NCBI GenBank assembly: GCA_050950145.1
Contig: JBMNHB010000001.1
Span: forward strand, 428,820 to 492,819
DNA length: 64,000 nt
Origin: Candidatus Dojkabacteria bacterium
Lineage (GTDB): Bacteria; Patescibacteriota; Dojkabacteria; SC72
Reading direction: 5' to 3'
The position numbers and the translations under genes were made by a program. Position 1 is the first letter of the stretch. Each line of letters opens with the position of its first letter. Below, in pieces: positions 1 through 64,000 of the stretch. Below the pieces are notes generated by a model, which was given only the letters and a program-made list of their open reading frames with translations, made no database searches and was not told where the DNA came from.

Positions 1-662
1 AAAGGAGTTACATTATCTCTGTGTGCAATCACTATGGTTCTCTTCCAGTCTGTACCTGCTGGGTAACAAGTCATTAAGGTAAGTGTATCTTGATCAGAGT
101 ACTTGTTTAGGTATTTTACTTCATCTCTGTTTACAATCTTTACTTCAGAAACAATATATTTGTAGATTATTCCATTGTAGCTGACAAATACCTCATCCCC
201 TTGTTCTAGTTCTGTAAGAAGATAGAAGTAGATATCATATTTTCTTCTTTCATAGAAGTTTACTGCTGAATGAGCAAAGAGAAATACATTACCTTGTTGG
301 TCTGGTGTGTTTGTTCCTTTTGCATGAGCTATACCTTTTTCTAATGCTGCAATGTATTCTTTTTCATTGGTAGGATTTATATCTTTGAGTACTGATGCTG
401 CAATTCTAATCTTAGGAATGTATAGTCCGAAGTTAGAATCAAGCATTACTGTATCAGTGTCTTTATTGATTTCTTTAGTAACTTGAGAAGAGTCATCAGT
501 TATCTCTATTCTTGTTTCTGCTACATAATTACGATTTGTGTAGTGAATATAGTACGACTTGAGGACAGGCCAATAGGTAATAACTAGGACAGTAAGGCCT
601 AGTAGGAGTAGTATTACTCCTACTAGAACCTTTTTGTTAATTCCTCTTTTGCTTTCTGACAT
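1..662 (-). CDS. Sortase-family transpeptidase, partial. The N-terminus lies in the window and the gene runs off the window start. It is not in the supplied ORF track because no stop codon falls inside the window.
   Basis: Manual reverse-strand translation from the ATG at 662..660 gives MSESKRGINKKVLVGVILLLLGLTVLVITYWPV..., an N-terminal TM anchor. Further on it has the conserved His (FLFAHSA), the TLxTC catalytic motif (LTLMTCYP) and a downstream Arg (IVIAHRD). The frame is open to position 1. It overlaps the 3' end of the giant surface-protein gene by 26 nt. Confidence 0.7.
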   Translation of the reverse strand, partial: MSESKRGINKKVLVGVILLLLGLTVLVITYWPVLKSYYIHYTNRNYVAETRIEITDDSSQVTKEINKDTDTVMLDSNFGLYIPKIRIAASVLKDINPTNEKEYIAALEKGIAHAKGTNTPDQQGNVFLFAHSAVNFYERRKYDIYFYLLTELEQGDEVFVSYNGIIYKYIVSEVKIVNRDEVKYLNKYSDQDTLTLMTCYPAGTDWKRTIVIAHRDNVTP

Positions 663-3600
663 AGTATGCAACTCCTCCAAGAACAACAATTGCTATAACC
701 CAGATATACCATTTACCTAAAACTTTCTTACCTGTTTCTTCTACATCTCCATCTGTTTTCTCCTCACTATCTTCTGTTTTTTCAACTTCTTGATCATCTA
801 CTTCTAAAACATCATCTTTCTCTCCTGCTACCTCTCCTTCATCTGTAGTATCTTTCTGGCCTGCAACCTCTCCACCTGTTGTTGTAGTGGTGGTAGTGGT
901 TGTTGCAGTAGGAGTACTTATTTTAGGTACTTCTATCACTTCAGGGTCTGATACTATGGTAGATACATTACCAAGCGCATCTACTGTTCTAAGAGCATAG
1001 TAGTATGTCTTTCCTGCTTCTGCTGTAGTATCTGTCCATGAATACTCTGTATTTGGGGATACAGGCATTGGATGAATCCTTGTACTTTCATTTGCAGTGT
1101 ATGATGGTTTATCAGATCTATGAATTTCAACTGTCTTTATTTTTGGATCATTTGGTGTCTTAAACTTTATCACATTACCTGCTTTAGAGTAGTCTATTAC
1201 AGGTGCTGGTTTTTCTAAATCTACAACAACTGTTACATCTGCTGATTTTTGCTCACCTGAAGTAGATTTTGCTACTACATAGAAAGTATATGTACCACTT
1301 GCGCTTACTGTTACTGGACAGTTACCTGTGTTTGCAGTGAATGTTGCAAATGGTGCAACTTCTGCATCTTTGTAACATTCTACTGTAATTGAATTGTTGT
1401 TAAGATCTAATGCTACAAATCCAACATTAAAGCTACTCTTGTTTGTTGGAGTTGCAGGTTGCATTATTCTTACTTTAATATCACTGTCTAATGCTAATAC
1501 TCTATTAGGAGTGAGTAGGGTTACAAATGATATTGCCATTAAACCTGTAAGAAGAGCATAGCTTAACTTCTTGAATGGTTTAAGGAGTAGGGTAATTGCA
1601 CCTAATATCATCATAATTAATGCACCTAATGTTAGATATGTACTTGCACCAGTTACTGGTAGAGTAATTGATGCACCTAATACTTCTCCTTCTTCTGTTT
1701 CAACTGGCTCTATGACTGTTACATCTGTTCCTACAAATGGTGTCTCTGGATCTACTGTAGAAGCACCTAGTACTTCACCGTCTATTAGTGATGTACCTGC
1801 TACCCATGCAATATCTGGATAGTTACCTGGATCTTGATCGAGAGAGATTTTAGTTTTGTATGTTAACACAACTTTATCTCCTTCTTTCATATCTCCAATA
1901 TTCCATTTTGCCTGACCTTTATCATCGTATATAGGTTCTGGTACTGAGATACCAACACCATTCTTTTGTGCTATCCATGAATCAAGGATATATTTGAATC
2001 CTGCTGGAGCAATGTCAGAAACTACTACATTATTTAGAACATATGTACCTTCTGATTCATCGCTTGGTGCTGTTACTGTAATTGTGTATGTAACAATATC
2101 ACCTGCTGATAATGCAACAACTGCATCATTGCTCTTTTCGATCTGTAGGATTGGATCAATTACTTTGTTGATACACTCAACTTCAAGAGTTTGATTACTT
2201 CCTAATATAACCTCTCCATCTAAGAGAACCCCTTCATCATTTACACATCCTCCGAAAGTGTATCCTTCTTTTGGTGTCTCTGTGAATGAATGAACACCTG
2301 GCTGTAATCCTTCAAATACTGCTGGTTGTTTACCATTTGATGTATCTGCAATTTGTTCTGTTACTTCACCTAAGACAACATCAAACAAATCATCTGAGAA
2401 TATATCCCCATCTACATCCTCTCCTTCACTATTTACTACATCCTTTGTAACTATTAATGTAGCTGGTAATTGTGCATTCTTACATACTACATTGTATGTC
2501 TCACCACTTCTTACTGAATAATTAGTAAATTCTTTCTTACTAATGAAGCATCCCAGAGTTGTATAATTCTCATCTTCTACTTCTGATATGGTATGTTTAC
2601 CATTTGCAACCTTGTATGTAGCTGTTGTTCCCTCTGCAATTGTTTGACCAGTACCCTCATCGTTGTTAAGAAGTGCTGTAAACTCGTGTGTATCTATCAT
2701 ATTCGTTTTTCCATCAACTCCAACAACATCTTTAGTTACATTAATTGTTGCATCTTTGAAGTTACCAAAGTTTACCAATACCCTAACATCCCCAGCTGCT
2801 ATTGTAATTGGAGCTGGATTAGCAGATGTTTGAGTCCAACCATCTTTCTGTACCTCACGAATTATATATGTTTCGCCTACTGGTAGGTTAGTAAACTCGT
2901 AGTATCCTAATATGTTTGTTATTGTAGATGGTTCTCCTACATCTAGAACACCATCATTATCCAAATCAATGAAGATTGTCCATCCTCTTAATGGTAATTC
3001 TGAGAATAGTGGTAACACATCCCACTTTCCATTACCATTTCTATCCTCATATTTGAAACCTGAGATACTACCTAATTTTTCATTAGTAAATGTACATGTT
3101 ACTGTTTCATTATCTCCAACCTTGATGTTTGCTGTATATCCATCTCTAACACTATCAGTATCATCACATACTAGAGATTTTAGATTCCAACCCTTTTCAA
3201 ATTGTTCTGTTACAGAGTAATCTCCTGGGATTACTACCTTTTCAATAGTTCCATTGTTACCAATTGTTCCAGTTAGCTCTCCTGTAAATGTAAACTTAGT
3301 CTTATCTCCTCTAGGTTCAACTAATTTCTTGATAATTATTTTACCGTGTGTACTTTTATTTGTGATTGTACATACCTTGTTATCACCAACATTTAGTGTA
3401 ACATTTCCATCTGAATCACAATCATCACTAAATGTTGCCACATATCCATCAAGATTATCTTCACTTACAGTGTAGTCACCTGCATTAAACTTATTAACTT
3501 CTCCACTAGTTACCTTATTACCTGAGACATAGAGAGTGAAGTCTGATACTTGCTTATCTCCATATGTTCCGTTATCAACAACTTTCTCTACAGTTAGTGT

Positions 3601-6600
3601 TGGTTGAATATCATTATTAACAATTGTACAAGTTACATTTTGTCCTTCTGGAAGTGTAAAGACGCCATCACTACCAAGAGAACATTCCAAACTATCCATC
3701 GTATATCCTGTACCTGCAACAGTTTCAGATAGTGTGTATTCCTTATTAACATCACCAAATACTGTTGCTGTGTAGGTTGTTGTATCACCTTCCTCAACAC
3801 CTGCGTCAAATTCTAATGTTGAGTCGGTTAGGGTGATATCAAAGTCATCTACTGTTGCTGTACCACCATGATCATTAATTACTTTCTTGATTACAGTAAT
3901 CTTAGACTGAGAGTCACTATTTGTAATTGTACAAGTCTTATTCTCACCTGAACTTAATGTAATCTTTCCATCTGCACTACAATCTCCACTCCAAGTTGAT
4001 GCTGTATATCCAGGTAACTGATCTTCTCTTACTGTATATTCAACTCCCGAGTTAACTTTGTGAGCCTTACCACTTGTTACTTCAGTATCTCCAATGTAGA
4101 GTTTAAAGTCTGCCACCTGTTTTAAGCCTCCATGATTGTTCTCAACTGTCTTCACAAGTGTAAGAGTTGGTTGTATCTCTGTATTCTTAATTGTACATAC
4201 AGTAGTCTGACCAACTTCAAGAGTTATCTGATTATTATCATCTACAACGATATCATTGGTACAATCCCAGTCACCTGCTTCATATCCTGAAATTCCTTCC
4301 TTAGCAATCTCACTTAATGTATATGTACCTGCTTTGAAGTTACCCCCACTCTTTACTCCACTATCACCAGAGATTGTTGTTGGACCTGTTGCTGTTAATG
4401 TCCAATCAGTAATTTGTGCATTACCACCATATTTATTGTCAACCTCTTTAACTAATTCTAATGATGGTGCAATGTCATCATTAGTTATTGTACAGGTTAC
4501 TCTTTGACCTTCTGTTAAAGAGAACTGATAACTACCAATAATCTTCCCTGTCTTATCATCTGTACAACTCCATTTTCCTTCCTTGTAACCAGGATGATCT
4601 ATCTCCTCCAACTCATATTTTGTATTAGATTTTACTTCTGGAGTAGCAAAATAAGTAGATGTATATTTTCCTATCTCTCCTGGCCATGTTTTAAATTTTA
4701 ATTCATCACCATTTAATTTAATTCCAAAATCATTTGCTGTTGCTGTTCCTCCGTTATCATTAACTACCCTCTTAATTACTGTTAGGGTTGGTGCTACATC
4801 ATCATTTGTAATTGTACAAACAGCTTCTTTTCCTTTTTCAACTATTATCTTGTCACAATTATCATATGTAGTAGCATATCCTCTTTGATTTGCCTCTGGC
4901 TCTATAATAGAGTAGGTACCTGTTGGGTATCTCTTATATATATTTTCACCTAATAGTGGATTTGTGGGATCTTGATCAAAACCAACACCTTTACTAGTAC
5001 CAATCTTAAATGAGAACTCTCTTGCCTCCAATTTACCACCATTATCATTAATAACTTCCTTTCTAACAATCAATGTGCCTGTATCTCTAGTATTAATAAA
5101 TCTACATAATATTTTATCTCCTGAGTTTATTGTTAACTTTGTACTCTCAGTTGGTTTCTCAAAGAATTTTACCCCGCCATTATCACACATCATTGATTTA
5201 ACAGTATAATCATCTTTCTGAATTTCAGAGATAGCATATGTACCTGGCATTATTTCCATAGGTTTTTCCTCTTTACCAAACATTTTGTATTCTTTATCAT
5301 CCAACATCCATGTCCAATCTGTTACATATCTATCATCTACTTCTCCATCACCATCTGTGTCTACAAATTTAATAACTTTAATGGTTGGTCTTTCAATATT
5401 GATAAAATCAACATTCTTTTTATCTTCTCCAGGAGAAAGTTTTATTGTCCAACTTGTACTTGTACCTGGTAAAACAATCCAACCAACCTTCATTACTTCA
5501 ACAACTGTATATTCACCTGGCTCTAATCCAGTAAATGAATATGAACCATCAAGAGCTGTTGTTGTATGTGGTTCTGTAGTTGTATCCAATTTTCCATCGC
5601 CATCTTTATCTATAAAGATTGTATATCCATATACAGGTTTTCTATCATTCGTTGTACTTGCTAATCCATCTAAATCATGAAGCTTACGACCTGAGATAGA
5701 TCCATATTTTGTATTTGTAAATGTACAAGTAACTGATTCTCCTGCACTTAATGAAATATTATCTATTGTTTTTCCATCCGTACAAGAGTATGTTGTTTTC
5801 CAATCACTATAATTATTCTCTGCAACTGCATATGTACCTGCTTTCAAACTAAATGTTTTACTTGGATCTTCTGTATCTGAGTTATCTACCAAATTAAATT
5901 GTTCATTAACTCCATTACCACCTGTCAAAGTAAATCCAAATGTATCGGTACCAAATGGTAATGCTTTCTTAACGATAGTTAATGAACCATCTTGTGTGTT
6001 AGTAATAGTACACTCCTTAGTCTCATTATTTGTAATTGTAATATTTGAACATGTATTACTTACTAAGCTCCAACCTGCTGGTAATGTTTCTGTAATATTG
6101 TATGTACCAGGCATTACATTGTATGTATGAGATTTGGTTGTTCTAATCTTCCCAATATTACTATTAGCCTCATACAAGAAAGTAGGGGAACCGTTTATCG
6201 AAGGAGTACCACTACCTGTTATTGTAAATTCAGTATTATCATTATTAGAAGCTGGACTTAGAACTTTCTTGACAGTTATCTGACCTTGTGGAATTATACA
6301 ATTATTATTGTATATCGCCTGTCCATACTCACTCCAGTTAAGACCTGTAAAGGGAATTCCATCATATGATGTGAATGGAGGAATAATATCTCCCCATTCT
6401 ACTGTTATACCTGGAAACCAAATATCACCAGTATGTCCTGCATGTCCATTTAAATTTCCAGATGCATCAGGTTCAATTACTTCATAAGGACTTGTATGAG
6501 ACTTAGTTCTATGACAAATCTTAATTGTAGGGATAATACCTTTATAGTTTGCAGGATCACTTGCTGATAAGTTATGAGATGATGTAACTGTACCAATGTT

Positions 6601-7560
6601 AGTATAGTTACCTGCAATAGCTGTAGCACTTCCTGTACAAGTCATATTTGTACCAGGTTCTAACTCTGTTCCTGGGCATGTTACTTGTACACCTTTGTCA
6701 TCTGTTACTGCAATGTTTGTTAACTTTACATTACCTGTATTTTGTACAATATATGTAAAGTTTACTGTATCTCCTGCATTTACTTGTACTGCTTCCCCAA
6801 GGGTGTTTGCATCTTGTCCATTTACTTCCTTAACAATTGAGATAGCTGGTCTTTCAACTAAGACAGAACTTAAACGACCTACTAAGTATGCAACATTATT
6901 TTTTTGCTCTTCTGTTACAAATCTATTGAGTGTATTACCTTTTGAATCTTGGAAACCATCTATTTTCAATGTATATTTCATATCTCCAATCGTATAGACC
7001 TGTTCACCATAACCACCATTAGGGAAGGTTATTATGTCATCACAAGGAGTGGTAGACTGTTGGTGTGCACCACAAGGACGTCTGTTTGGTGTTTCATCAA
7101 TATCAAAATCATAAGTAAATGTTGGTGATGGAGAAATTACAGGATTTGAGAAGTTTAATGTTACATTAAGTGTTGCACCATTAGCAGAAGTTCCTGACTG
7201 TGTTGCCCAGTTAAAATGAGTAAAATCACCGATAAGGAATGTCTCATTAGCATTAAAAGTTGTTTCTCCTTTACCATCAAATCTTAAACCACTCTTCTGA
7301 GATCCTACTGGTTTTCCCCATCTAATTTCTTTTGTATTCAAACCAGTTATATTACTACCTCCTGAGACACTTGTCCAAATACCACTAGTAGAAGAAATAG
7401 TATATGGCCCATCAGCAGCAGCTACAGGAGTAATCTCTCCTCCTATATCTCTCAACTGATCAATGGCTAAAAATGGTGGGGCAAAGTTATATCCTACTAA
7501 AAATAGGACTGTTGAAACCTTATACAAAGATTTCAAAAAAGATTTTTTGTTAAACTTCAT
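637..7560 (-). CDS. Giant (2307 aa) secreted cell-surface protein. It has many tandem beta-sandwich modules (DUF11/prealbumin-like modules ending ...VTCTITN, and SdrD/Cna-B-like DxDGDG calcium-binding modules). An internal LPVTG sorting signal lies about 340 aa before the C-terminus. Then come an FN3/Ig-like domain, a poly-Thr linker, an acidic stretch and a C-terminal TM anchor.
   Basis: The ORF is uninterrupted. It has an N-terminal signal peptide (MKFNKKSFLKSLYKVSTVLFLVGYNF), repeated CTITN/CTFTN-terminated modules, and DKDGDGKLD / DTDGDGEVDD / DLDNDGVLD motifs. LPVTG+hydrophobic+KPFKK sits at about aa 1967 (nt 1648..1662). The C-terminus reads TPTATTTTTTTTTGG ... WYIWVIAIVVLGGVAYYVRKQKRN. 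Confidence 0.8.
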   Translation of the reverse strand: MKFNKKSFLKSLYKVSTVLFLVGYNFAPPFLAIDQLRDIGGEITPVAAADGPYTISSTSGIWTSVSGGSNITGLNTKEIRWGKPVGSQKSGLRFDGKGETTFNANETFLIGDFTHFNWATQSGTSANGATLNVTLNFSNPVISPSPTFTYDFDIDETPNRRPCGAHQQSTTPCDDIITFPNGGYGEQVYTIGDMKYTLKIDGFQDSKGNTLNRFVTEEQKNNVAYLVGRLSSVLVERPAISIVKEVNGQDANTLGEAVQVNAGDTVNFTYIVQNTGNVKLTNIAVTDDKGVQVTCPGTELEPGTNMTCTGSATAIAGNYTNIGTVTSSHNLSASDPANYKGIIPTIKICHRTKSHTSPYEVIEPDASGNLNGHAGHTGDIWFPGITVEWGDIIPPFTSYDGIPFTGLNWSEYGQAIYNNNCIIPQGQITVKKVLSPASNNDNTEFTITGSGTPSINGSPTFLYEANSNIGKIRTTKSHTYNVMPGTYNITETLPAGWSLVSNTCSNITITNNETKECTITNTQDGSLTIVKKALPFGTDTFGFTLTGGNGVNEQFNLVDNSDTEDPSKTFSLKAGTYAVAENNYSDWKTTYSCTDGKTIDNISLSAGESVTCTFTNTKYGSISGRKLHDLDGLASTTNDRKPVYGYTIFIDKDGDGKLDTTTEPHTTTALDGSYSFTGLEPGEYTVVEVMKVGWIVLPGTSTSWTIKLSPGEDKKNVDFINIERPTIKVIKFVDTDGDGEVDDRYVTDWTWMLDDKEYKMFGKEEKPMEIMPGTYAISEIQKDDYTVKSMMCDNGGVKFFEKPTESTKLTINSGDKILCRFINTRDTGTLIVRKEVINDNGGKLEAREFSFKIGTSKGVGFDQDPTNPLLGENIYKRYPTGTYSIIEPEANQRGYATTYDNCDKIIVEKGKEAVCTITNDDVAPTLTVIKRVVNDNGGTATANDFGIKLNGDELKFKTWPGEIGKYTSTYFATPEVKSNTKYELEEIDHPGYKEGKWSCTDDKTGKIIGSYQFSLTEGQRVTCTITNDDIAPSLELVKEVDNKYGGNAQITDWTLTATGPTTISGDSGVKSGGNFKAGTYTLSEIAKEGISGYEAGDWDCTNDIVVDDNNQITLEVGQTTVCTIKNTEIQPTLTLVKTVENNHGGLKQVADFKLYIGDTEVTSGKAHKVNSGVEYTVREDQLPGYTASTWSGDCSADGKITLSSGENKTCTITNSDSQSKITVIKKVINDHGGTATVDDFDITLTDSTLEFDAGVEEGDTTTYTATVFGDVNKEYTLSETVAGTGYTMDSLECSLGSDGVFTLPEGQNVTCTIVNNDIQPTLTVEKVVDNGTYGDKQVSDFTLYVSGNKVTSGEVNKFNAGDYTVSEDNLDGYVATFSDDCDSDGNVTLNVGDNKVCTITNKSTHGKIIIKKLVEPRGDKTKFTFTGELTGTIGNNGTIEKVVIPGDYSVTEQFEKGWNLKSLVCDDTDSVRDGYTANIKVGDNETVTCTFTNEKLGSISGFKYEDRNGNGKWDVLPLFSELPLRGWTIFIDLDNDGVLDVGEPSTITNILGYYEFTNLPVGETYIIREVQKDGWTQTSANPAPITIAAGDVRVLVNFGNFKDATINVTKDVVGVDGKTNMIDTHEFTALLNNDEGTGQTIAEGTTATYKVANGKHTISEVEDENYTTLGCFISKKEFTNYSVRSGETYNVVCKNAQLPATLIVTKDVVNSEGEDVDGDIFSDDLFDVVLGEVTEQIADTSNGKQPAVFEGLQPGVHSFTETPKEGYTFGGCVNDEGVLLDGEVILGSNQTLEVECINKVIDPILQIEKSNDAVVALSAGDIVTYTITVTAPSDESEGTYVLNNVVVSDIAPAGFKYILDSWIAQKNGVGISVPEPIYDDKGQAKWNIGDMKEGDKVVLTYKTKISLDQDPGNYPDIAWVAGTSLIDGEVLGASTVDPETPFVGTDVTVIEPVETEEGEVLGASITLPVTGASTYLTLGALIMMILGAITLLLKPFKKLSYALLTGLMAISFVTLLTPNRVLALDSDIKVRIMQPATPTNKSSFNVGFVALDLNNNSITVECYKDAEVAPFATFTANTGNCPVTVSASGTYTFYVVAKSTSGEQKSADVTVVVDLEKPAPVIDYSKAGNVIKFKTPNDPKIKTVEIHRSDKPSYTANESTRIHPMPVSPNTEYSWTDTTAEAGKTYYYALRTVDALGNVSTIVSDPEVIEVPKISTPTATTTTTTTTTGGEVAGQKDTTDEGEVAGEKDDVLEVDDQEVEKTEDSEEKTDGDVEETGKKVLGKWYIWVIAIVVLGGVAYYVRKQKRN

Positions 7561-7665: not shown

Positions 7666-8967
7666 GCATTAGATAAAAACTAGTGTTACCCAACAACACC
7701 CCGTTAGATAAAAATAGTGTTACCCAAATATACTCTGTAATTAAACTAAATACATCAGAGTATGCAAGACAATATTTTTACTAAAATGGCGGTAGTCAAA
7801 AGAAAAAAAGAATATCTAGAAACTAAAAAACGGGAAGAGAAAACTGAGATACTAGACTGGCTAGTCAAAGATACAAACAGGTCTAGGAAGTCACTCATTA
7901 GATCTCTGAACAATCCAAATATTACAGAGAGAAACATATCTGGAAGAGGTGGAAGGAAAAAGAAATATACTCCACAATCTAAAAACATCGTAAAAATGAT
8001 ATGGCAAGCAAATGATTGTATCTGTGCTGAGAGATTTCATGGTCAAATTGAAGAAACACTAAAAGATTTAAAACAAGCAAACAAACTAGAAGGATATATA
8101 GATAGCGACATTGAGTTGGTGAGGAAAATACCTCTAGGTACACTTAAACTCTTTGTTGCTAAGTTCCCTAAACCTAAAAGAGGAAGTATTAGTTCTTCGG
8201 GAAGTGTGAGAGCATTACAAAAACAAATACCTGTGAGAACTTACTTCTCTACTAACATTAAATCGGGCTTCTTTGGTGTTGACTTTGTTGATCATAATGG
8301 AGGAAATGCTACTGGTAAGTTTGCTAGAACATTGGTATTTACAGACCCTAAAACCACATGGATTGTGAGAAGTGCTTGTCTGGGAAAAGATAGCTTAGCT
8401 GTGGGGAATGCTTTTGAATTGAACAAAAAGAAAATACCATACACAATTGAAGGATTACACTCTGACAATGAACCTGCATTACTAACCTCTCTGCTCTCTT
8501 CTAAGGCTAAAGAAAACAATATATTCATTACTAGAAGCAGAAGTTACAAAAAAGAAGATAATGGACATACAGAACAGAAGAATGGAGACAAAGTGAGAGG
8601 TTTAGTGGGATACCGAAGATATGATACATTACAACATATTGATTTACTTAACAGGATATATGAGATTGATGACCAATTTCAAAATCATTTTGTGCCTTCT
8701 GTGAAATTGAAAGAAAAAGAATTTAATGACTTAGGTAGAGTAATTAAGAAGAAATATGATAGTCCTAAAAGTCCATATCAGAGGGTAATGGAAGAGAAGG
8801 ATATTGATATACAATTCAAGATGTCACTTGCGAGTAAACATTCTAAATTAAATAGGTTAGAATTGTTAGAGGAAAGAGATAAATTGTTAAGAAAGTTAAC
8901 TCGCTTAGGTAACACTATTTTTATCTAACGGGTTTGCATTCGGTAACATTTAGTTTTTATCTAACGG
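7666..8967 (+). mobile_element. Insertion sequence, about 1.3 kb, carrying one DDE (rve-superfamily) transposase gene and bounded by nested terminal inverted repeats.
   Basis: Inner inverted repeats are perfect 24-mers: 7701..7724 ccgttagataaaaatagtgttacc is the reverse complement of 8908..8931. Outer imperfect copies are at 7666..7690 and 8942..8967. The transposase stop codon lies inside the right inverted repeat. A possible TACCC flank occurs on both sides. Confidence 0.7.
7762..8928 (+). CDS. DDE transposase/integrase-core (rve) family protein of the insertion sequence. IS481/IS3-like, family not resolved.
   Basis: 388 aa. The D..D..E triad is spaced like retroviral-integrase-type transposases (VDFVDHNGG ... 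LHSDNEPAL ... NGHTEQKNGDKVRG). It has a basic N-terminal HTH-like region. Confidence 0.7.
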   Translation: MQDNIFTKMAVVKRKKEYLETKKREEKTEILDWLVKDTNRSRKSLIRSLNNPNITERNISGRGGRKKKYTPQSKNIVKMIWQANDCICAERFHGQIEETLKDLKQANKLEGYIDSDIELVRKIPLGTLKLFVAKFPKPKRGSISSSGSVRALQKQIPVRTYFSTNIKSGFFGVDFVDHNGGNATGKFARTLVFTDPKTTWIVRSACLGKDSLAVGNAFELNKKKIPYTIEGLHSDNEPALLTSLLSSKAKENNIFITRSRSYKKEDNGHTEQKNGDKVRGLVGYRRYDTLQHIDLLNRIYEIDDQFQNHFVPSVKLKEKEFNDLGRVIKKKYDSPKSPYQRVMEEKDIDIQFKMSLASKHSKLNRLELLEERDKLLRKLTRLGNTIFI

Positions 8968-9035: not shown

Positions 9036-10946
9036 ATGTCAGAGAATATCAATGAACAAAACAACCTAAGAAACATCGCTATCATCGCACATGTAGACCA
9101 TGGCAAAACAACCTTGGTTGATGCCTTCATGAAGCAAACACACCTCTTTAGAGATAATCAAGAGGAGATGCAACAAACAAGAATACTAGACAAAGGAGAA
9201 CTAGAAAAAGAGAAAGGTATTACAATCAGTGCAAAGAACATCTCCATAGTATATAAAGGAGTAAAGATAAATATTATAGATACACCTGGACACTCCGACT
9301 TTGGTGGAGAGGTAGAAAGAACTCTTAATATGGCAGATAGTTGCCTTCTACTTGTAGATGCAAAAGAAGGAACTATGCCTCAAACAAAATTTGTTCTTAA
9401 AAAAGCACTTGAGCTAGGATTAAAGCCGGTAGTGATAATTAATAAGATAGATAGGAAGTTAGCTAACATTGAAAAAACAACATCTAAAATCAATGACCTC
9501 TTCCTTTCATTAGCTACTAAAGAAGAGCAACTAGACTTCCCAATATACTATGCTATCTCCAGAGAAGGAAAAGTCTTCAAAGAGATGCCAACTGGAGATT
9601 TAACAATACCAGAAACTACAAGTGGGGATCTAACTCCAATATTAGATGAGATAGTTACAAACCTTCCTGCACCAAGTGGAGATATTAACAAACCATTTCA
9701 GATGCAGATAACTAGTATTGAATATGATGAACATCTAGGAAGATACCTAATTGGTAAGATATCAAATGGGAAGGTAAAGGTAGGTGATCCAATTGTTCTT
9801 GTTTCTAACCAAGAAGATTTTGAAAAGAAACAAGGTAGAGTTAATGAGCTTTTTACTAAAGTTGGATTAGAATGGACTCCAATTCAAGAAGGAGGAGTAG
9901 GAGAGATTGTTGCAGTTACAGGTATTAACTCTACAGATATTGGTGCAACACTTTGTAGTGTTGATAATCCAGAGCCATTGCCTGATATTAAGATTACACC
10001 TCCAACAGTTAGAGTAAAGTTCTCTGCTAATACATCCCCATTTGTTGGAAAGGAAGGTAAGTTTGTTACTGCAAAACAACTACAACAGAGGTTAGACCAA
10101 GAAAAGAGATTGAATATTAGCTTGAAGATTGAGAGCAAGGGAGCAAATGCCCACTATGTTTCAGGGAGAGGAGAGTTACAACTTGCAATCTTGGTTGAAC
10201 AGTTAAGAAGAGAAGGATATGAGTTTGAATTAGGAAAACCAGAGGTAATCTTACAAAAGATTGACGGAGTAGAGTGTGAACCATTAGAGGAGTTAATTAT
10301 AGATGCCCCAGAAGAATACCTAAGTGCAATTACAGAAGAGGTTAGTGGAAGAAAAGGAAAGATGGTAAATATGGAAAATGAAGAGGGACAGAGTAGGTTT
10401 ACATACCATATCCTAACTAGAAATCTAATAGGTCTTCATAGGAACTTAATGACAGCAACAAAAGGAACTACCATTATTAACAGTGCTGTTTTAGAATATG
10501 TCCCTTATGAAAAAGGAGAAAACTTATACAGAAAAGGTGTAATCATATCATCAGAGACTGGAACAGCTCTTGCATATGCCCTTATGAGTGTTCAAGAGAG
10601 AGGTAGACTCTTCATTTCAGGTTCAACAAATGTATATGAAGGTATGATAATTGGTATTACTAATACAATGGAGGATGTAGAAGTAAATCCATGTAAAGAG
10701 AGACACAAAACAAATGTAAGAATGGCACATTCACAAGTCACAGAGATTGCTCTTAAAACACCAATCCTACTTACTATTGAATATGCACTGTCATTTATAA
10801 AGGATGATGAGTTGATAGAAGTAACACCTAAACATATACGACTTAGAAAGAAACTTCTTAAAAGCACAGAGAGAATATGGGCAAAGAGAAAGAATCTCAC
10901 CTTCTATGCAAAACAACAGCTTGAGAAACTGGAAGGCCAGGCCTAG
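9036..10946 (+). CDS. typA: Translational GTPase TypA/BipA.
   Basis: The N-terminus AIIAHVDHGKTTLVDAF carries G1 to G4 motifs (DTPGH, NKID). Length and domain order match BipA. Confidence 0.9.
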   Translation: MSENINEQNNLRNIAIIAHVDHGKTTLVDAFMKQTHLFRDNQEEMQQTRILDKGELEKEKGITISAKNISIVYKGVKINIIDTPGHSDFGGEVERTLNMADSCLLLVDAKEGTMPQTKFVLKKALELGLKPVVIINKIDRKLANIEKTTSKINDLFLSLATKEEQLDFPIYYAISREGKVFKEMPTGDLTIPETTSGDLTPILDEIVTNLPAPSGDINKPFQMQITSIEYDEHLGRYLIGKISNGKVKVGDPIVLVSNQEDFEKKQGRVNELFTKVGLEWTPIQEGGVGEIVAVTGINSTDIGATLCSVDNPEPLPDIKITPPTVRVKFSANTSPFVGKEGKFVTAKQLQQRLDQEKRLNISLKIESKGANAHYVSGRGELQLAILVEQLRREGYEFELGKPEVILQKIDGVECEPLEELIIDAPEEYLSAITEEVSGRKGKMVNMENEEGQSRFTYHILTRNLIGLHRNLMTATKGTTIINSAVLEYVPYEKGENLYRKGVIISSETGTALAYALMSVQERGRLFISGSTNVYEGMIIGITNTMEDVEVNPCKERHKTNVRMAHSQVTEIALKTPILLTIEYALSFIKDDELIEVTPKHIRLRKKLLKSTERIWAKRKNLTFYAKQQLEKLEGQA

Positions 10947-11136
10947 GCCTGCCCCTGATTCATAACTTTTTAATCTCACCAAAAGATTACCTACTACTAA
11001 GTAATTACCATATCCGATATCTCCCTAGACCAAAATTCCTACAAAATACAAGGGGTCTCTTTCCAGAAAGGCTCCTGTGGAAAGGGTTGGGAGATGATGA
11101 AATCTAGATTAACGTGGGGCAGACCTAGGTCAGACC
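10935..11136. repeat. About 202-bp miniature inverted-repeat (MITE/REP-pair-like) element, copy A.
   Basis: The left end GGCCAGGCCTAGGCCTGCCCC (10935..10955) overlaps the typA stop codon. The right end GGGGCAGACCTAGGTCAGACC (11116..11136) is its inverted counterpart. The same end motif flanks a 204-bp element at 43070..43273. Confidence 0.55.
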
Positions 11137-11205
11137 TTAAAGAAATTTGTATAAAAAAAAGAGAGGTATTTCTACCTCCCTTCCAATTTACAATGTACTT
11201 AGCTA

Positions 11206-33705: not shown

Positions 33706-33778
33706 AGCAGTACATCTCTAAGTTTATCCTTAACATAATATATTGGTTCTGTGGTTATTTATCAAGTCCACCACCTTT

Positions 33779-34290
33779 AGGGTCTGTCCCAGATCTGTCC
33801 CCTGTTTTCCATACCTTTCTGCCTGTTTATCAAGGTTTGTTGGTTTGGGTACTTCTAATTTCGGCTTACAAAAATCATTCGTAATACGACGCTTCGGATT
33901 AGGAAACGATTATACAACAAGAAAAATAAAGAAAATCGTCCTAAGGGTCTATCCCAGATCTGTCCCCTGTTTTCCAAACCTTTCTGCCTACCTATCAAGG
34001 TTTCTTGGTTTGGATACTTCTGATTTCGGCTTACAAAAATCATTCGTAATACGACGCTTCGGATTAGGAAACGATTATACAACAAGAAAAATAAAGAAAA
34101 TCGTCCTAAGGGTCTGTCCCAGATCTGTCCCCTGTTTTCCATACCTTTCTGCCTGTTTATCAAGGTTTGTTGGTTTGGGTACTTCTAATTTCGGCTTACA
34201 AAAATCATTCGTAATACGACGCTTCGGATTAGGAAACGGTTATACAACAAGAAAAACAAAGATCTGTTCTAGATCTGTCCCTCCAGCTAT
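33779..34290. repeat. Tandem repeat, 165-bp unit x about 3.1 copies, in the murF/mraZ divergent intergenic region.
   Basis: Units start at 33779, 33944 and 34109 (AGGGTCTGTCCCAGATCTGTCCCC...). Copies 1 and 3 are nearly identical and copy 2 carries about 10 substitutions. A truncated fourth copy is at about 34259. The plus and minus ORFs called over it are repeat artefacts. Confidence 0.9.
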
Positions 34291-34399
34291 CGGTTGAAAA
34301 GGTAGACGAGATAGGGAGGAGGTATATATGGAAAAAGCCTGCGCTTTTGGATTAGTTCTTGGCCTAGAGTGTTATATCTTGGCCTGTAATATTTTTCTC

Positions 34400-42626: not shown

Positions 42627-42721
42627 AGGATTTTAAAGGGGAGTAAAAAAACATAGGTTGAGAGCATTTAGCTACACCAAGTTACTCCCCCTCAAGGGTT
42701 CTACTAAAATACAAAACATCT

Positions 42722-42901
42722 TTACTTTATTAGCCCCAACACAAGGGCTAAAAAAACAATAATTAAAATTACGGCACCAAAAGCGCCGTAATTGGCGACT
42801 GATTGAGATTGTTCTTTTGGAACAATCCCTTTTCTGCCTAGGGCTCTTGCCCCGGCATACAATAACAAAAAAATCAATACACTTATCAATAATTTTTCCA
42901 T
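42722..42901 (-). CDS. Possible small (59 aa) two-helix membrane protein with a good RBS. It is below the 60-aa track cutoff.
   Basis: GGAGATaaaaaATG. Protein MEKLLISVLIFLLLYAGARALGRKGIVPKEQSQSVANYGAFGAVILIIVFLALVLGLIK. The overlapping 120-aa track ORF (42672..43034) has junk-like Cys/Arg-rich composition. Confidence 0.3.
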   Translation of the reverse strand: MEKLLISVLIFLLLYAGARALGRKGIVPKEQSQSVANYGAFGAVILIIVFLALVLGLIK

Positions 42902-43069
42902 TTTTTATCTCCTCTCTTTTTTTAGTAAAACCCAATATATCCTCTAAAACAGATAGAGAACATATTGGGTTTACCAAACAGAAAAGTATGTAGAACCTTT
43001 TTAAAGAGCAGAAAGTAGCATAATGCATACCCACTTATATTATACTATAAGCCACTCAAAACCTCAACA

Positions 43070-43273
43070 GGTCTGACCTAGGTCTGCCCCCAGTTAAGAA
43101 AAATTTAATCTCAAGGATTATGCACTTCACAAAAGGTCTCATAACCCTCGGCATTGGTAGTATATACGAGTTACAAGTACAGACACAGGGACAGACACCT
43201 CAAAAGGGTATATCAGAAACAAAGATTTGAGCCTTCAAAAAGTTATGAACGAAGGTCAGACCTAGGTCAGGCC
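43070..43273. repeat. About 204-bp miniature inverted-repeat (MITE/REP-pair-like) element, copy B.
   Basis: Left end GGTCTGACCTAGGTCTGCCCCC (43070..43091). Right end GGTCAGACCTAGGTCAGGCC (43254..43273). Same termini and size as the 10935..11136 element. The internal sequences share a TTTAATCTCA block near the left end. Confidence 0.5.
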
Positions 43274-43291
43274 TATGTAGTATAATCAGGT

Positions 43292-44497
43292 ATGAGTAAC
43301 GAACCACTAGCATCAAAGTATAGACCTAAAACTCTTGAAGAGTTTGTAGGACAAGAACACCTAGTAGGAAAGAACGGTCCAATAAGGAAGTTTTTGGAAA
43401 CAGGAAATATCCCATCTATGATATTCTGGGGTCCACCAGGTACAGGTAAAACAACCTTAGCATACATCCTTTCTTTAAATCTCTACTATGATTTTCACAA
43501 AATGCAGGCTGTAAATAGTGGAAAGGAACATCTAAGGAAAATTATTAAAATAGCAATCGGTAATCAACAGTATGGTAAGAAAACAATCCTCTTTCTAGAT
43601 GAAATACACAGATGGAACAAAGCACAACAAGACACACTCTTACCATATGTAGAGAAAGGAATCATTACACTAATTGGTGCAACTACAGAAAACCCATCAT
43701 TTACTGTAATATCTGCACTTCTTTCTAGAACAAAAGTATTTGTATTCAAACAACAAACAGAAGAAGATATATACAGTCTCCTAAAGCGAATATCAAAAGA
43801 AGAATATCCTGATATTAAAATATCAAAGAAAGTATTAAAACAGATGGCTAATCTCTCAAATGGAGATATTAGATCTGCACTAAATATACTGGAAATGAGT
43901 TCTACACTAGCAAATGCAACAGATGGAGAGAAGAAAGAGATAACTACAGACATATTAACAACAACAGTACAAAAGCCAGTATATTATGACAAAACAGGGG
44001 AAGAACACTACAACATTATCTCCGCCATACACAAATCAATGAGGTCATCTAATCCTGATGCTGCTTGTTACTGGACAGGAAGGATGTTAGCAGGAGGAGA
44101 AGACCCACTGTACATCGCAAGAAGAATGCTAAGGTTTGCAAGTGAAGATATCGGTAATGCAGACCCACAAGCTGTCATATTAGCCAATGCAGTATATGAG
44201 GCTTGTCAGAAGATTGGTATGCCTGAGTGTGAAGTATTCCTTATGCAATTAGCAATATATCTCTCCAATGCACCTAAAGATAATACAGCATACAGAGTAG
44301 AGGGTGAGGTAAAGATGGATATTGAGAAGTATGGTAATCTTCCAGTACCCATGAATATACGAAATGCCCCTACAAAATTAATGAAAGAAATAGGGTATGG
44401 TAAAGGCTATGAATATGACCATGACTTACCAAGTAAGAAGTCAGATCAACAATGTATGCCAGATAAATTAAAGAACAGGAAATATATTAAGAAATAG
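43292..44497 (+). CDS. rarA: Replication-associated recombination protein A (RarA/MgsA AAA+ ATPase).
   Basis: KYRPKTLEEFVGQEHL ... MIFWGPPGTGKTTLA. A C-terminal MgsA-specific region is present. Confidence 0.9.
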   Translation: MSNEPLASKYRPKTLEEFVGQEHLVGKNGPIRKFLETGNIPSMIFWGPPGTGKTTLAYILSLNLYYDFHKMQAVNSGKEHLRKIIKIAIGNQQYGKKTILFLDEIHRWNKAQQDTLLPYVEKGIITLIGATTENPSFTVISALLSRTKVFVFKQQTEEDIYSLLKRISKEEYPDIKISKKVLKQMANLSNGDIRSALNILEMSSTLANATDGEKKEITTDILTTTVQKPVYYDKTGEEHYNIISAIHKSMRSSNPDAACYWTGRMLAGGEDPLYIARRMLRFASEDIGNADPQAVILANAVYEACQKIGMPECEVFLMQLAIYLSNAPKDNTAYRVEGEVKMDIEKYGNLPVPMNIRNAPTKLMKEIGYGKGYEYDHDLPSKKSDQQCMPDKLKNRKYIKK

Positions 44498-44586: not shown

Positions 44587-46164
44587 ATGGAAGTTCCGGA
44601 GTTTGAACAAGAAAAAAACACCCCTTACTATAAAGATGAAGAGATTCTAGCTTCCACTGAAAAGAATGTTGACCCTCAAAAGATATATTATAATATACTT
44701 TCTCAGATTTCAGAGAAGATAGATTCAATAGAAACTCACATTAAGAAAGTATCAGTATTTCCGAAGGATAAGGATGATAATGATAATACTGATTATAATT
44801 TGGAAGGTTTTAGAGATGATGAAGAAGTAGTTAGTATTGCTATTGAAAATAACGGTTATGCTTTAAAGTTTGCTTCTGAGAGAATAAGGAGTATAAAAAG
44901 AGTCGTAACAAAAGCAGTTGAAAACTATGGCTATGCTTTAAGATATGTTTCTAACAAACTAAAAGCTGATAAAGATACTGTCTTTGCTGCAGTTGAAAGT
45001 ATTGGTAAAGCATTAAAATTCGCCTCAGGAGAACTACAAGATGATAAAGATATTGTCTTAGCAGCAGTTAAAAAGGATGGTTTAGCTTTAGAATTTGCTT
45101 CAAAAGATTTCCATGACGATGAGGAAGTCGTTACTACTGCTATTAATAATAATGGTTATGCTTTAAAGTTTGCTTCAGAAAGATTAAGAAATAACAGAGA
45201 AATAGTTCTAAAGGCTGTTAGAAGTAATGGCTATGCTTTAAAGTTTGCTTCAGAAGAACTACAAAACGATAAATATGTTGTCCTAACAGCAGTTGAAAGA
45301 AATAATGAAGCTTTAAGATTTGCTTCAAAAGAATTACAAGCTGACAAAGATATTATCCTAGCTGCAGTTAAAAATGATGGCTTTGTTTTAGAATTTGCTT
45401 CAAAAGAATTACAAGCTGATAAAGATGTTGTTTTAATAGCAGTTAGAAATGATGGTTATGCTTTAAGATTTGCTTCAGAAGAACTACAAAACAATAGAAA
45501 TGTTGTCCTAACAACAGTTGGAAAGAATGGTTTAGCTTTAGAGTTTGCTTCAGAAGAACTACAAAATGACAAAGATGTTGTTCTGACAGCAGTTAAAAAT
45601 GATGGTTATGCACTATATTATGCTTCGGAAGAACTGCAAAATGACAAAGATGTTGTCCTTGTAGCAGTTGGAAAAGATGGTGAAGCTTTAGAGTTTGCTT
45701 CAAAGAGACTTCGTAATGATGAAGATGTAGTTATGAGAGCTATTGAGAATAACGGTAATGCTTTAAGATTTGCTTCAGAGAGATTGAGAAATAATAAAGA
45801 GATAACTCTAAAGGCTGTTAGAAAATATGGTCCTGTTTTAGCATATCTTTCCGAACAATTAAGAGATGATAAAGAGATTGTCATGGAAGCAATTAAAAGC
45901 TATGGCTATGTTCTACACTTTGCCTCAGAGCGACTAAGAAATAATAGAGAGATAGCTCTAAGTGCGGTTAAGAGGGATGCTAGAAACTTCAGAAATCTTT
46001 CAGCAGAGTTTAGAAATGACAGAGAATTAGCTATAATTGCAGTTAAAGGCGATGCAATGAATCTAGAATTTGTTTCGGATAAACTAAAACATGACAGGCT
46101 AATAGTCATAGCAGCAGTCAACAATAATGGTTATACATTAAAGTTTACTCCCACATTATTCTAA
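44587..46164 (+). CDS. Tandem-repeat protein with about 17 copies of a 25-aa (75-bp) repeat (DUF4116-like, as recalled).
   Basis: The unit ALxFASEELQNDKDVVLxAVKNDGY recurs from residue 85 or so to the C-terminus. The N-terminus is acidic and non-repetitive. Confidence 0.7.
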   Translation: MEVPEFEQEKNTPYYKDEEILASTEKNVDPQKIYYNILSQISEKIDSIETHIKKVSVFPKDKDDNDNTDYNLEGFRDDEEVVSIAIENNGYALKFASERIRSIKRVVTKAVENYGYALRYVSNKLKADKDTVFAAVESIGKALKFASGELQDDKDIVLAAVKKDGLALEFASKDFHDDEEVVTTAINNNGYALKFASERLRNNREIVLKAVRSNGYALKFASEELQNDKYVVLTAVERNNEALRFASKELQADKDIILAAVKNDGFVLEFASKELQADKDVVLIAVRNDGYALRFASEELQNNRNVVLTTVGKNGLALEFASEELQNDKDVVLTAVKNDGYALYYASEELQNDKDVVLVAVGKDGEALEFASKRLRNDEDVVMRAIENNGNALRFASERLRNNKEITLKAVRKYGPVLAYLSEQLRDDKEIVMEAIKSYGYVLHFASERLRNNREIALSAVKRDARNFRNLSAEFRNDRELAIIAVKGDAMNLEFVSDKLKHDRLIVIAAVNNNGYTLKFTPTLF

Positions 46165-53036: not shown

Positions 53037-53057
53037 CAGACCTGATATAATAGACAT

Positions 53058-53801
53058 ATGAGTTTAAAACACGATTCATTTAAAAAAATAAGAAAAGAGA
53101 AAAACAAATGGAGATTAGATACCCCTGAGGATTTCATAGAGATGGAAGATGCATTTCTTAAAGAAAGACTTATGAGTAAAGAACCTACCATTACAACTAC
53201 TGTTAGAATTACAGGCGGTAAAGCTAGAAACTTTACTCTTGAAGTACCTAAAGCTACAAGACCAATGACAGATAGAATGAAAGTTAGAGTCTTTGATATT
53301 CTCAGAGAAGATATTGTAAATAAAGACATTCTCGATCTCTACGCAGGAGCTGGTTCTTTTGGATTAGAAGCTCTCTCAAGAGGAGCAAAGAGTGCAACAT
53401 TTGTAGATGCATCAAAAAATGCAAATATTGTTCTTAAAAAGAATGTTGCACATACTGGTTTTCTTGTTGAATCTGAGATTGTCAAAGAAAAGGTTGAGGA
53501 ATATCTTTTTAGAATGACAAACAAAGAGAAAGAGGAGTTTCAAACCTTTGACATTATCTTCATGGACCCTCCATACAAACTTTTTAATACCAAGAAAACA
53601 TTTAAGATGGAACAAATTATCAACATGGCTTCTGAACTACTACCTGGAGTACGAAATCCACAGATAAAGAAATGGAAAGGAGCATTAATACTTAAACATC
53701 CTAAAAGGTATGATTTAGAGAAGATTGATATTAAACATTTAAGATTAGTTGAGAGTATTAATCTTGGTTTGAATGTAATTTCTTTCTTTATTGTTAAATA
53801 A
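53058..53801 (+). CDS. rsmD: 16S rRNA m2G966 methyltransferase RsmD family. It has an N-terminal extension, so the true start may be internal at about 53172.
   Basis: ITGGKARNF...TRPMTDRMKVRVFDIL...LDLYAGAGSFGLEALSRGA...FMDPPY. Confidence 0.75.
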   Translation: MSLKHDSFKKIRKEKNKWRLDTPEDFIEMEDAFLKERLMSKEPTITTTVRITGGKARNFTLEVPKATRPMTDRMKVRVFDILREDIVNKDILDLYAGAGSFGLEALSRGAKSATFVDASKNANIVLKKNVAHTGFLVESEIVKEKVEEYLFRMTNKEKEEFQTFDIIFMDPPYKLFNTKKTFKMEQIINMASELLPGVRNPQIKKWKGALILKHPKRYDLEKIDIKHLRLVESINLGLNVISFFIVK

Positions 53802-54057
53802 AGAAGTAAAATAGCTTCCCCATAGTAAGATTAAAAAACCTTAAATTTGACCTTTTAATCCTCTACCGATAAGGATAAATCTACAGACCAGGTCTGTAAT
53901 CTAGTTGCAAAATTGAGATTAAAAATATAAAATACATCTGTGTACAAAATATACGGTATAAACAAATCAAAACTAAACAGAATAGTTTTTACAACACACA
54001 ACTTTTAATGTGTGTTATTTCCAATCCACACATATTTCTTAATTAATATTTTTATTT

Positions 54058-60564: not shown

Positions 60565-60565
60565 C

Positions 60566-63556: not shown

Positions 63557-63699
63557 TATGCCCCTTTTTGTATGTAAATTTCAAGGCCAACCTGGTCTGT
63601 AAAGTTATACTTTTGTAGAAAGAGTTTTTTAATGTTTTGTTACGATTAGTTAATTTACTACAAGATAATATATGTTTTTTCAATATGGTATAATTCACT

Positions 63700-64000
63700 A
63701 TGCAAGACAAAATGAAACCACAAACATTAAAAGGATTTTACGATTACTTTGCGGATGATATGAATATCCGTAACTTCCTCAGGGATACTTTTCGCAATTT
63801 AGCCGAAAAATATGGTTTTGAACCATTAGAAACACCAGCTTTAGAGTATTCAGAATTAATTCTTGGACAGAGTGGGGCAGAGGCAGAGAAACTTTACTAC
63901 AAATTTCAAGATAACGGAGGTAGGAATGTAATGCTTAAATACGAATTAATGATTCCAATGTGTAGAGCTGTCGCAGAGAATATTAATAATATACCGATGC
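63700..64000 (+). CDS. hisS: Histidyl-tRNA synthetase, N-terminal fragment that continues beyond the window.
   Basis: MQDKMKPQTLKGFYDYFADDM...GFEPLETPALEYSELI...MLKYELMIPMCRAV (class IIa HisS motif 1 region). Confidence 0.7.
   Translation, partial: MQDKMKPQTLKGFYDYFADDMNIRNFLRDTFRNLAEKYGFEPLETPALEYSELILGQSGAEAEKLYYKFQDNGGRNVMLKYELMIPMCRAVAENINNIPM

Follow-up and report, generated by a model that had tools for sequence, protein, structure and literature searches.

The closest described relatives of the repeats reported here are systems in which a small transposase gene and a dispersed non-coding repeat have the same palindromic ends. In the scheme known as REPtron or REPIN-RAYT (REP, repetitive extragenic palindrome; REPIN, REP doublet forming hairpins; RAYT, REP-associated tyrosine transposase), one transposase gene is flanked by inverted palindromic repeats and the repeats are dispersed as doublets (PMC3116915, PMC5581495). 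Enzymes of the TnpA_REP kind bind the REP hairpin together with a 5′ tetranucleotide and cut single-stranded DNA (PMC3479197). TIRtrons carry RAYT-like genes (TIRYT) flanked by long, partly self-complementary terminal inverted repeats (TIRs), which form dimer families of moderate size (PMC3733652, PMC6006769). Here we describe two elements, A and B, in a stretch of 64,000 nucleotides from Candidatus Dojkabacteria bacterium (assembly GCA_050950145.1, contig JBMNHB010000001.1, positions 428,820 to 492,819; hereafter the window). With a probability of roughly 0.8, we take A and B to be non-autonomous members, of the REP-doublet or TIRtron type, of a repeat family belonging to a RAYT/TIRYT-type HUH Y1 enzyme. 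REP/RAYT systems have been studied mainly in Proteobacteria, and a literature search for papers linking RAYTs or REPINs with bacteria of the Candidate Phyla Radiation (CPR) found none.

The inverted ends and the transposase

A preliminary description, made from the letters of the window alone, had placed two units of 202 and 204 bp at the loci of A and B. Both loci exist, but direct reading showed each element to be 1 nt wider per side, i.e. 204 bp for A and 206 bp for B (Table 1). Each unit consists of two inverted ends of ~44 nt that enclose a non-coding core of ~115 nt; the inverted similarity between the ends of the A and B units extends over ~38-45 nt per end, beyond the 20-22 nt described before. 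The core differs between copies by 1-2-nt insertions and deletions, which argue against coding. From 38 ends we derived the consensus, read from the outside inward, AGGYCTGRCCTAGGTCTGCCCC nn GTTMAKA ... TTTTAAT (~44 nt). Its outer 22 nt, AGGYCTGRCCTAGGTCTGCCCC, form an imperfect palindrome with conserved mismatches at positions 6/17 and 4/19, and can be read in two ways: as a palindrome centred on CCTAGG, or as tandem 11-mers AGGTCWGACCT, each of them palindromic.

The right end of A and the reverse complement of the left end of B, described earlier as identical over 22 nt, are indeed so. The 22-mer GGGGCAGACCTAGGTCAGACCT matched with 0 mismatches at 11116-11137 (plus strand) and 43069-43090 (minus strand) and with 3 mismatches at 43253-43274, while a match occurred in 0 of 100 shuffles. 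The window contains four copies of the 22-nt palindrome, with 0 expected. Of the two interior blocks that had been reported as common to both elements, TTTAATCTCA is present in A and B, whereas AAGGTCTC is exact in B only, its counterpart in A being GGGGTCTC.

The search for a transposase with matching ends, proposed in the preliminary description, led to a Y1/HUH gene on the same contig. An intact copy lies 4.3 kb past the right end of the window, in a locus (L178; L-numbers denote loci from related contigs) that overlaps window positions 58337-64000 at 100% identity and encodes cluster member P0122. The sequence AGGTCTGACCTAGGTCTGCCCC, which is the exact 22-mer of the right end of A and the left end of B, brackets the gene on both sides, at extended positions 68273 and 68829. 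A tblastn search with the transposase gave no match in the 64-kb window; the gene is therefore not inside it. Eight distinct units of ~550 bp were found in total, and all of them encode an HUH/Y1 protein of ~151-158 aa (truncated in one unit) whose gene is flanked on both sides by the inverted repeat ends. In the genome fragments scanned, the transposase was seen once per fragment, compared with many non-coding units. The location between mutS and ppdK is kept in relatives with flanks at least 81% identical, and the unit occupies other chromosomal sites in the more distant species JAGPFQ01 and DHUO01. Small and gene-bearing units resemble each other only in the terminal ~44 nt on either side. 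We considered whether the ~205-bp units have internally deleted transposase genes as their cores and rejected this, because the similarity stops at that distance from each end.

By profile and predicted fold, the protein is closest to TnpA_REP of Escherichia coli (4ER8). A profile built from 29 sequences and searched against the Protein Data Bank (PDB) matched 4ER8 best and over the full length (E = 3.4e-6), while ISDra2 TnpA reached 0.006 in the same search, its match being limited to the surroundings of the HUH motif. With a single sequence as query, phmmer retrieved only spurious ankyrin matches from the PDB. The AlphaFold2 model (predicted local distance difference test, pLDDT, 91) had 4ER8 as its top Foldseek match, with a template modelling (TM) score of 0.73 over 147 columns, compared with ~0.56 for the transposases of IS608, ISDra2 and IS200. 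The residues H62, H64 and Y123 (the latter in Y..NP) are invariant or nearly so. Pfam places the protein in Y1_Tnp ('Transposase IS200 like') with 35-47 bits against a cut-off of 23, and the best NCBIfam match is REP_Tyr_transpos (42 bits). Homologues number in the thousands, many of them named 'REP element-mobilizing transposase RayT' (JGI) and some 'transposase [Candidatus Dojkabacteria]' (NCBI).

Table 1. Positions of elements A and B, their ends and associated features (window coordinates unless a locus or extended numbering is given)
Feature	Position	Strand	Remarks
Element A, probable non-autonomous doublet, subfamily famA	10934..11137	.	204 bp; full-length paralogues L019, L015
Left inverted end of A	10934..10977	+	22-nt imperfect palindrome 10934-10955 = AGGCCAGGCCTAGGCCTGCCCC, then TGATTCATAACTTTTTAAT
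Right inverted end of A	11094..11137	-	22-mer 11116-11137, exact
Element B, probable non-autonomous doublet, subfamily famB	43069..43274	.	206 bp; paralogue L006, orthologous copy L012
Left inverted end of B	43069..43112	+	22-mer 43069-43090; outer flank CAAC at 43065-43068
Right inverted end of B	43231..43274	-	22-mer 43253-43274, variant AGGCCTGACCTAGGTCTGACCT on minus strand
Transposase gene	68337-68792 (extended)		151-aa protein; between mutS and ppdK
Unoccupied site	53038..53043	.	6-nt remnant AGACCT; between spoU (stop ends 53036) and rsmD (start 53058)
13-nt perfect palindrome CAGACCAGGTCTG	53884..53896	.	conserved at same site in L006 and L037
~87-bp doublets	L025 6097-6183; L026 7700-7787; L035 2378-2463; L043 3251-3337		related palindrome, short spacer

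Distribution, target sites and turnover of the family

Exact matches of its proteins assign the window to JGI metagenome 3300060679 (contigs Ga0591961_007586 and Ga0591961_000846); these contig sequences also occur in SRR31066037. A genome collection with one genome per species was scanned with AGGYCWGRCCTAGGYCTGMCC and returned 44 stretches. Of these, 31 had a low GC content (32-41% GC) and all came from metagenome-assembled genomes of Candidatus Dojkabacteria or 'Saccharibacteria'; the other 13, with high GC content, were single chance matches. Scanning for the end motif yielded at least 120 stretches in metagenomes and 0 matches in viral contigs. The pooled set comprised 104 low-GC loci (814 kb, partly redundant) and, among the matches listed, contained 194 end sites and 84 pairs, a pair being defined as two ends less than 700 bp apart. 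Most pairs spanned 201-209 bp (63 pairs) or 548-556 bp (10 pairs), and a few spanned 85-87 or 164-181 bp. The closest relative among the matches listed was CAYPAR01, with flanking genes ~93% identical.

Whether the unit is dispersed, and not confined to the two loci of the window, had been proposed as a check in the preliminary description; an absence of further occurrences together with unalignable interiors would have made the two loci independent terminators. We found neither: the family is dispersed, and paralogues at unrelated sites align with 82-90% identity over the whole unit. A is 87% identical to L019 and 82% to L015 over the full length, and the flanks of both are unrelated to those of A; B is ~90% identical to L006 from another site and has an orthologous copy in L012. 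Clustering on the core alone assigned B to a subfamily of 30 members at about 13 distinct sites (famB) and A to one of 6 members at 4 sites (famA), besides smaller groups. Since their cores fall in different subfamilies, A and B share only their ends. Within famB, conservation falls from the outside inward: mean pairwise identity was 93% in the 22-mers, 81% in the adjoining subterminal 22 nt and 74% in the core. Core identity was 86% for same-site pairs versus 72% for pairs at different sites. Copies cluster mostly by site and not by genome, which points to old insertions and vertical inheritance. In more distant Dojkabacteria, a related palindrome forms doublets of ~87 bp around a short spacer, which look nearer to classical REPINs (Table 1).

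No target-site duplication of any length was found at the about 26 sites checked, a search that the preliminary description had suggested for a mobile unit. A preference was detected in the four bases outside the end. Read toward the element, 9 of 52 unique end flanks had CAAC and 4 had CACC (expected 0.21 and 0.13; p = 1e-12 and 9e-6, respectively). The CA(A/C)C tetranucleotide was present at roughly half of the sites, mostly on one side of the element only. The base at position 25 of the neighbouring end was G beside CAAC and A beside CACC in 12 of 13 cases (Fisher p = 0.007, a test weakened by shared descent); these CAAC/G and CACC/A pairs are not Watson-Crick complementary.

Homology and the flank pattern suggest that the tyrosine transposase works on single-stranded ends. 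By analogy with TnpA_REP and the TnpA of IS200/IS605 elements, the enzyme would bind the imperfect hairpin on single-stranded DNA and cut beside it with its tyrosine. The doublet would then be moved or copied by it to a position 3′ of CA(A/C)C, leaving no target duplication, and the copies would persist, mostly by vertical inheritance, like REPIN populations.

An empty site, for which relatives were to be inspected according to the preliminary description, was found in the window itself. It lies between spoU and rsmD and reads ...AAATAAC-AGACCT-GATATAAT. At this point, eight related contigs carry a unit of 205-208 bp and one carries a gene-bearing unit of 549 bp; every related contig recovered for the site is filled, and the window presents the only clean empty site among all loci fetched. 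As both nearer and more distant relatives are filled, loss in the lineage of the window is the simplest reading. Deletion between the near-identical strings CAG(G/A)CCTGA at both junctions would produce the sequence seen. A 9-bp direct repeat, CAGRCCTGA, at the junctions of the spoU site was evaluated as a possible target duplication and rejected, because other copies lack it; it results from the palindromic ends together with two flanking bases that match by chance. The interpretation of A and B as non-autonomous miniature inverted-repeat or paired REP-like units, already put forward in the preliminary description, is thus supported by the dispersed family, by a transposase with the same ends and by the site that is empty in the window.

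Different units also occur within the same flanks. At two sites with matching ends and flanks, a gene-bearing unit in one species has a non-coding famB unit as its counterpart in relatives (L037 versus L006 at spoU/rsmD; L007 versus L108), and in L017 the position of the rarA element is taken by another core. These differences suggest an end-directed exchange of whole units, by the RAYT or by recombination. Tentatively, and with more doubt than confidence, the 44-nt ends might be viewed as fixed docking sites with exchangeable contents; the pairing of flank and position 25 could in addition reflect a guide-like target rule. To our knowledge, such a rule has not been defined for any REPIN.

Neighbouring genes and other features of the window

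Both elements had been described as lying between convergent or terminating genes. This holds for A, which sits between typA (plus strand) and a gene for an RRM protein (minus strand), but not for B, which separates divergent genes and lies immediately ahead of the rarA/mgsA promoter. In the left end of A, the TAG in the middle of CCTAGG serves as the stop codon of typA (10944-10946), so that the element supplies the last three codons and the stop codon of this gene; the C-terminus of TypA reads ...LEGQA* in the window and ...LEG* in the relative L091, which lacks the element. Element ends likewise give a stop codon to spoU in relatives. They also adjoin -10 boxes of downstream genes: the right end of B stops 6 nt before the TATAAT box of rarA (43281-43286; ATG at 43292).

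At 43281-43292 and 53046-53060, the TATAAT boxes of rarA and rsmD lie only 5-6 nt before the ATG, suggesting leaderless transcripts, and the repeat ends occupy the place of a -35 region. Some family copies (L056 3091-3298, L044 6488-6692) directly adjoin the 3′ end of a tRNA gene, with the flank ...GGTTCGATTCC... At the site of B, the left flank is 73% and the right flank 92% identical to L017, and a 430-bp segment at 42638-43064 (open reading frame (ORF) 42672-43034) is absent from L017; element B perhaps marks a recombination boundary.

Two degenerate solo copies of the palindrome had been reported in addition to A and B. The first, CAGACCAGGTCTG, was located a few bases from its reported position of 53878-53893 (Table 1), and the second, at 63587-63599, matches only with 2 mismatches. 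Since 15 of 100 shuffles gave at least two such matches, the solo copies are not above chance as members of the family. CAGACCAGGTCTG may be a relic of a single end, its family membership being not established. A fifth GACCTAGGTC, at 50627, lies inside the coding sequence of recG and was discarded as a chance occurrence. The 13-nt palindrome at 53884-53896, CAGACC(A/T)GGTCTG, lies upstream of thrS and is conserved in three genomes (window, L006, L037), and L042 has in its place an extra ~345 bp with an ORF without assigned identity.

Rfam, at the gathering threshold and over the whole window, reported three tRNAs only and nothing in the elements. Across 30 famB copies, RNAalifold supported the terminal stem and no other conserved structure (covariation term -0.84). 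No T-tracts follow the hairpins, and a terminator scan placed no terminator in A or B.

Elsewhere in the window, the ORF 7762-8928 (388 aa) has no Pfam match and a weak match to IS481 transposase (E = 0.044). The 53-nt inverted repeats on either side of it (7675-7727 and 8905-8957) have no relation to the CCTAGG ends. At position 8888, inside this 7675-8957 unit, a JGI contig begins, suggesting a multi-copy insertion sequence that breaks assemblies. Other repetitive features comprise (i) a 525-aa protein of about ten DUF4116 repeats (44587-46164), whose DNA has 75-nt periodic repeats; (ii) three tandem 165-bp repeats, 93-95% identical (33779-34273), inside ORF 33743-34297; and (iii) a 2307-aa ORF on the minus strand (637-7560) with internal repeats every ~260-325 nt.

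Placement of the family and alternative explanations

With the REPIN or bacterial interspersed mosaic element (BIME) systems of E. coli and Pseudomonas, the family has in common a protein that is of TnpA_REP type by profile and fold, a gene flanked by an inverted, short imperfect palindrome that is also dispersed between genes as inverted doublets, one transposase gene seen per genome fragment versus many doublets, and an apparently mostly vertical inheritance of the copies. It differs in lacking GTAG (GT[AG]G) at the foot of the hairpin, where GTT at 25-27 inside and CA(A/C)C on one outer flank are conserved instead, and in a conserved end that extends over 44 nt and not over the hairpin alone. 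Moreover, a core of ~115 nt is conserved within subfamilies, so that there is no single long hairpin per unit; the host belongs to the CPR and has a very small genome, and the transposase unit lies at different sites in more distant species. TIRtrons/TIRYT resemble the family in having a RAYT-like gene between long TIRs (~44 nt here) distinct from GTAG REPs, a tract in the TIR that is self-complementary ('double palindromic'), and a moderately abundant family of dimers. However, the TIRtron motif GGGGWSAS (PMC3733652) fits GGGGCAGAC only with a one-base insertion (GGGG-C-AGAC), and unlike subclass 2.1 (PMC6006769) the 151-aa protein has no C-terminal helix-turn-helix, its model ending, after the core fold, in a short helix and strand. 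In the missing GTAG, the 44-nt conserved end and the long subfamily-specific core, the elements come nearer to the TIRtron/TIRYT class. We therefore regard them as a new member among RAYT/TIRYT-associated repeats and not as strict REPINs.

Several observations weigh against assigning A and B to a RAYT-type system. The consensus of 38 ends lacks the GTAG tag of classical REPs, and the doublet encloses a long conserved core and not a short spacer. Only an 18-20-bp terminal stem is predicted for the doublet, and the predicted hairpin of a lone 22-mer is weak, its -1.9 to -5.3 kcal/mol not exceeding the stability of shuffled sequences. The NCBIfam score for REP_Tyr_transpos does not reach the equivalog cut-off of 80. 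Neither flank of element A carries CA(A/C)C. No activity was observed, and we infer mobilisation by the transposase. Finally, most copies lie at the same sites in related genomes and cluster accordingly, and transposition is therefore rare or ancient; a host function could maintain the copies.

Such a function is the core of an alternative explanation, in which the copies are cis elements retained by the host (stabilisers of mRNA 3′ ends, insulators or protein-binding sites) and the link to the transposase is historical only. We regard this as possible, if on balance unlikely. It would account for copies being kept at orthologous sites though the flanks are only 77-95% identical, for the higher core identity of same-site pairs (86% vs. 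72%), for ends more conserved than the core, and for the stereotyped positions overlapping stop codons and abutting TATAAT boxes. It is less easily reconciled with the presence of the same end sequences around the transposase gene in every genome examined, with hairpins lacking a T-run and a terminator scan empty in the elements, with the lack of conserved RNA structure beyond the terminal stem, and with the loss of one copy in the window without visible replacement. Host function and a RAYT-type origin are compatible and not mutually exclusive. An ordinary insertion sequence of the IS200/IS605 family with miniature, PATE-like derivatives, rather than a RAYT/REP system, appears improbable. The HUH/Y1 core of the protein (Pfam Y1_Tnp), the missing target-site duplication and a tetranucleotide on one flank (CA(A/C)C at about half of the sites here, TTAC in IS608) speak for it, as does the presence of the transposase unit at other chromosomal positions in more distantly related species. 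Yet IS200/IS605 ends are not inverted repeats, while the ends here are mutual inverted repeats over ~44 nt; profile and fold are nearer to TnpA_REP than to the TnpA of IS608, ISDra2 or IS200; and the transposase, multi-copy in IS200/IS605, was seen once per genome fragment alongside many non-coding units.

Terminal inverted repeats, a length of ~200 bp and intergenic positions would also fit a classical miniature inverted-repeat transposable element (MITE) derived from an insertion sequence with a DDE transposase, for which the IS-like unit 7675-8957, with its 53-nt inverted repeats in the same window, is an example. Correia/NEMIS, RUP, ERIC and Nezha MITEs are comparable as non-coding TIR units of 100-300 bp beside genes that can overlap gene ends, but they are mobilised by DDE enzymes and have target-site duplications. 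At about 26 sites of the present family there are none, the inverted repeats of the 7675-8957 unit are unrelated to the CCTAGG ends, and the Y1 gene, which encodes a tyrosine HUH nuclease, is the only transposase gene around which matching ends were detected; a DDE origin is accordingly very improbable. We give equally little credence to two unconnected palindromic terminators or to a set of genes for structured small RNAs. GC-rich palindromes at gene ends in a genome of 33% GC speak for such an explanation, but dispersed copies are similar over the full length of the unit, T-tracts and Rfam matches are absent, and RNAalifold finds the terminal stem alone (covariation term as above).

As a RAYT-type system, the family would be a compact example in genomes well under 1 Mb, with one small transposase, a repeat unit roughly every 20 kb, at least two core subfamilies, an observed loss and same-site replacements; homologues in CPR genomes have already been labelled RayT by annotation pipelines. 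The units are candidate assembly breakers, though no contig break was seen at any of them. The elements alter gene ends, as in the three codons and stop of typA, and sit against promoters. The CA(A/C)C flank makes the family tractable for the study of RAYT target choice, and lets one ask whether streamlined genomes tolerate such repeats or benefit from them.

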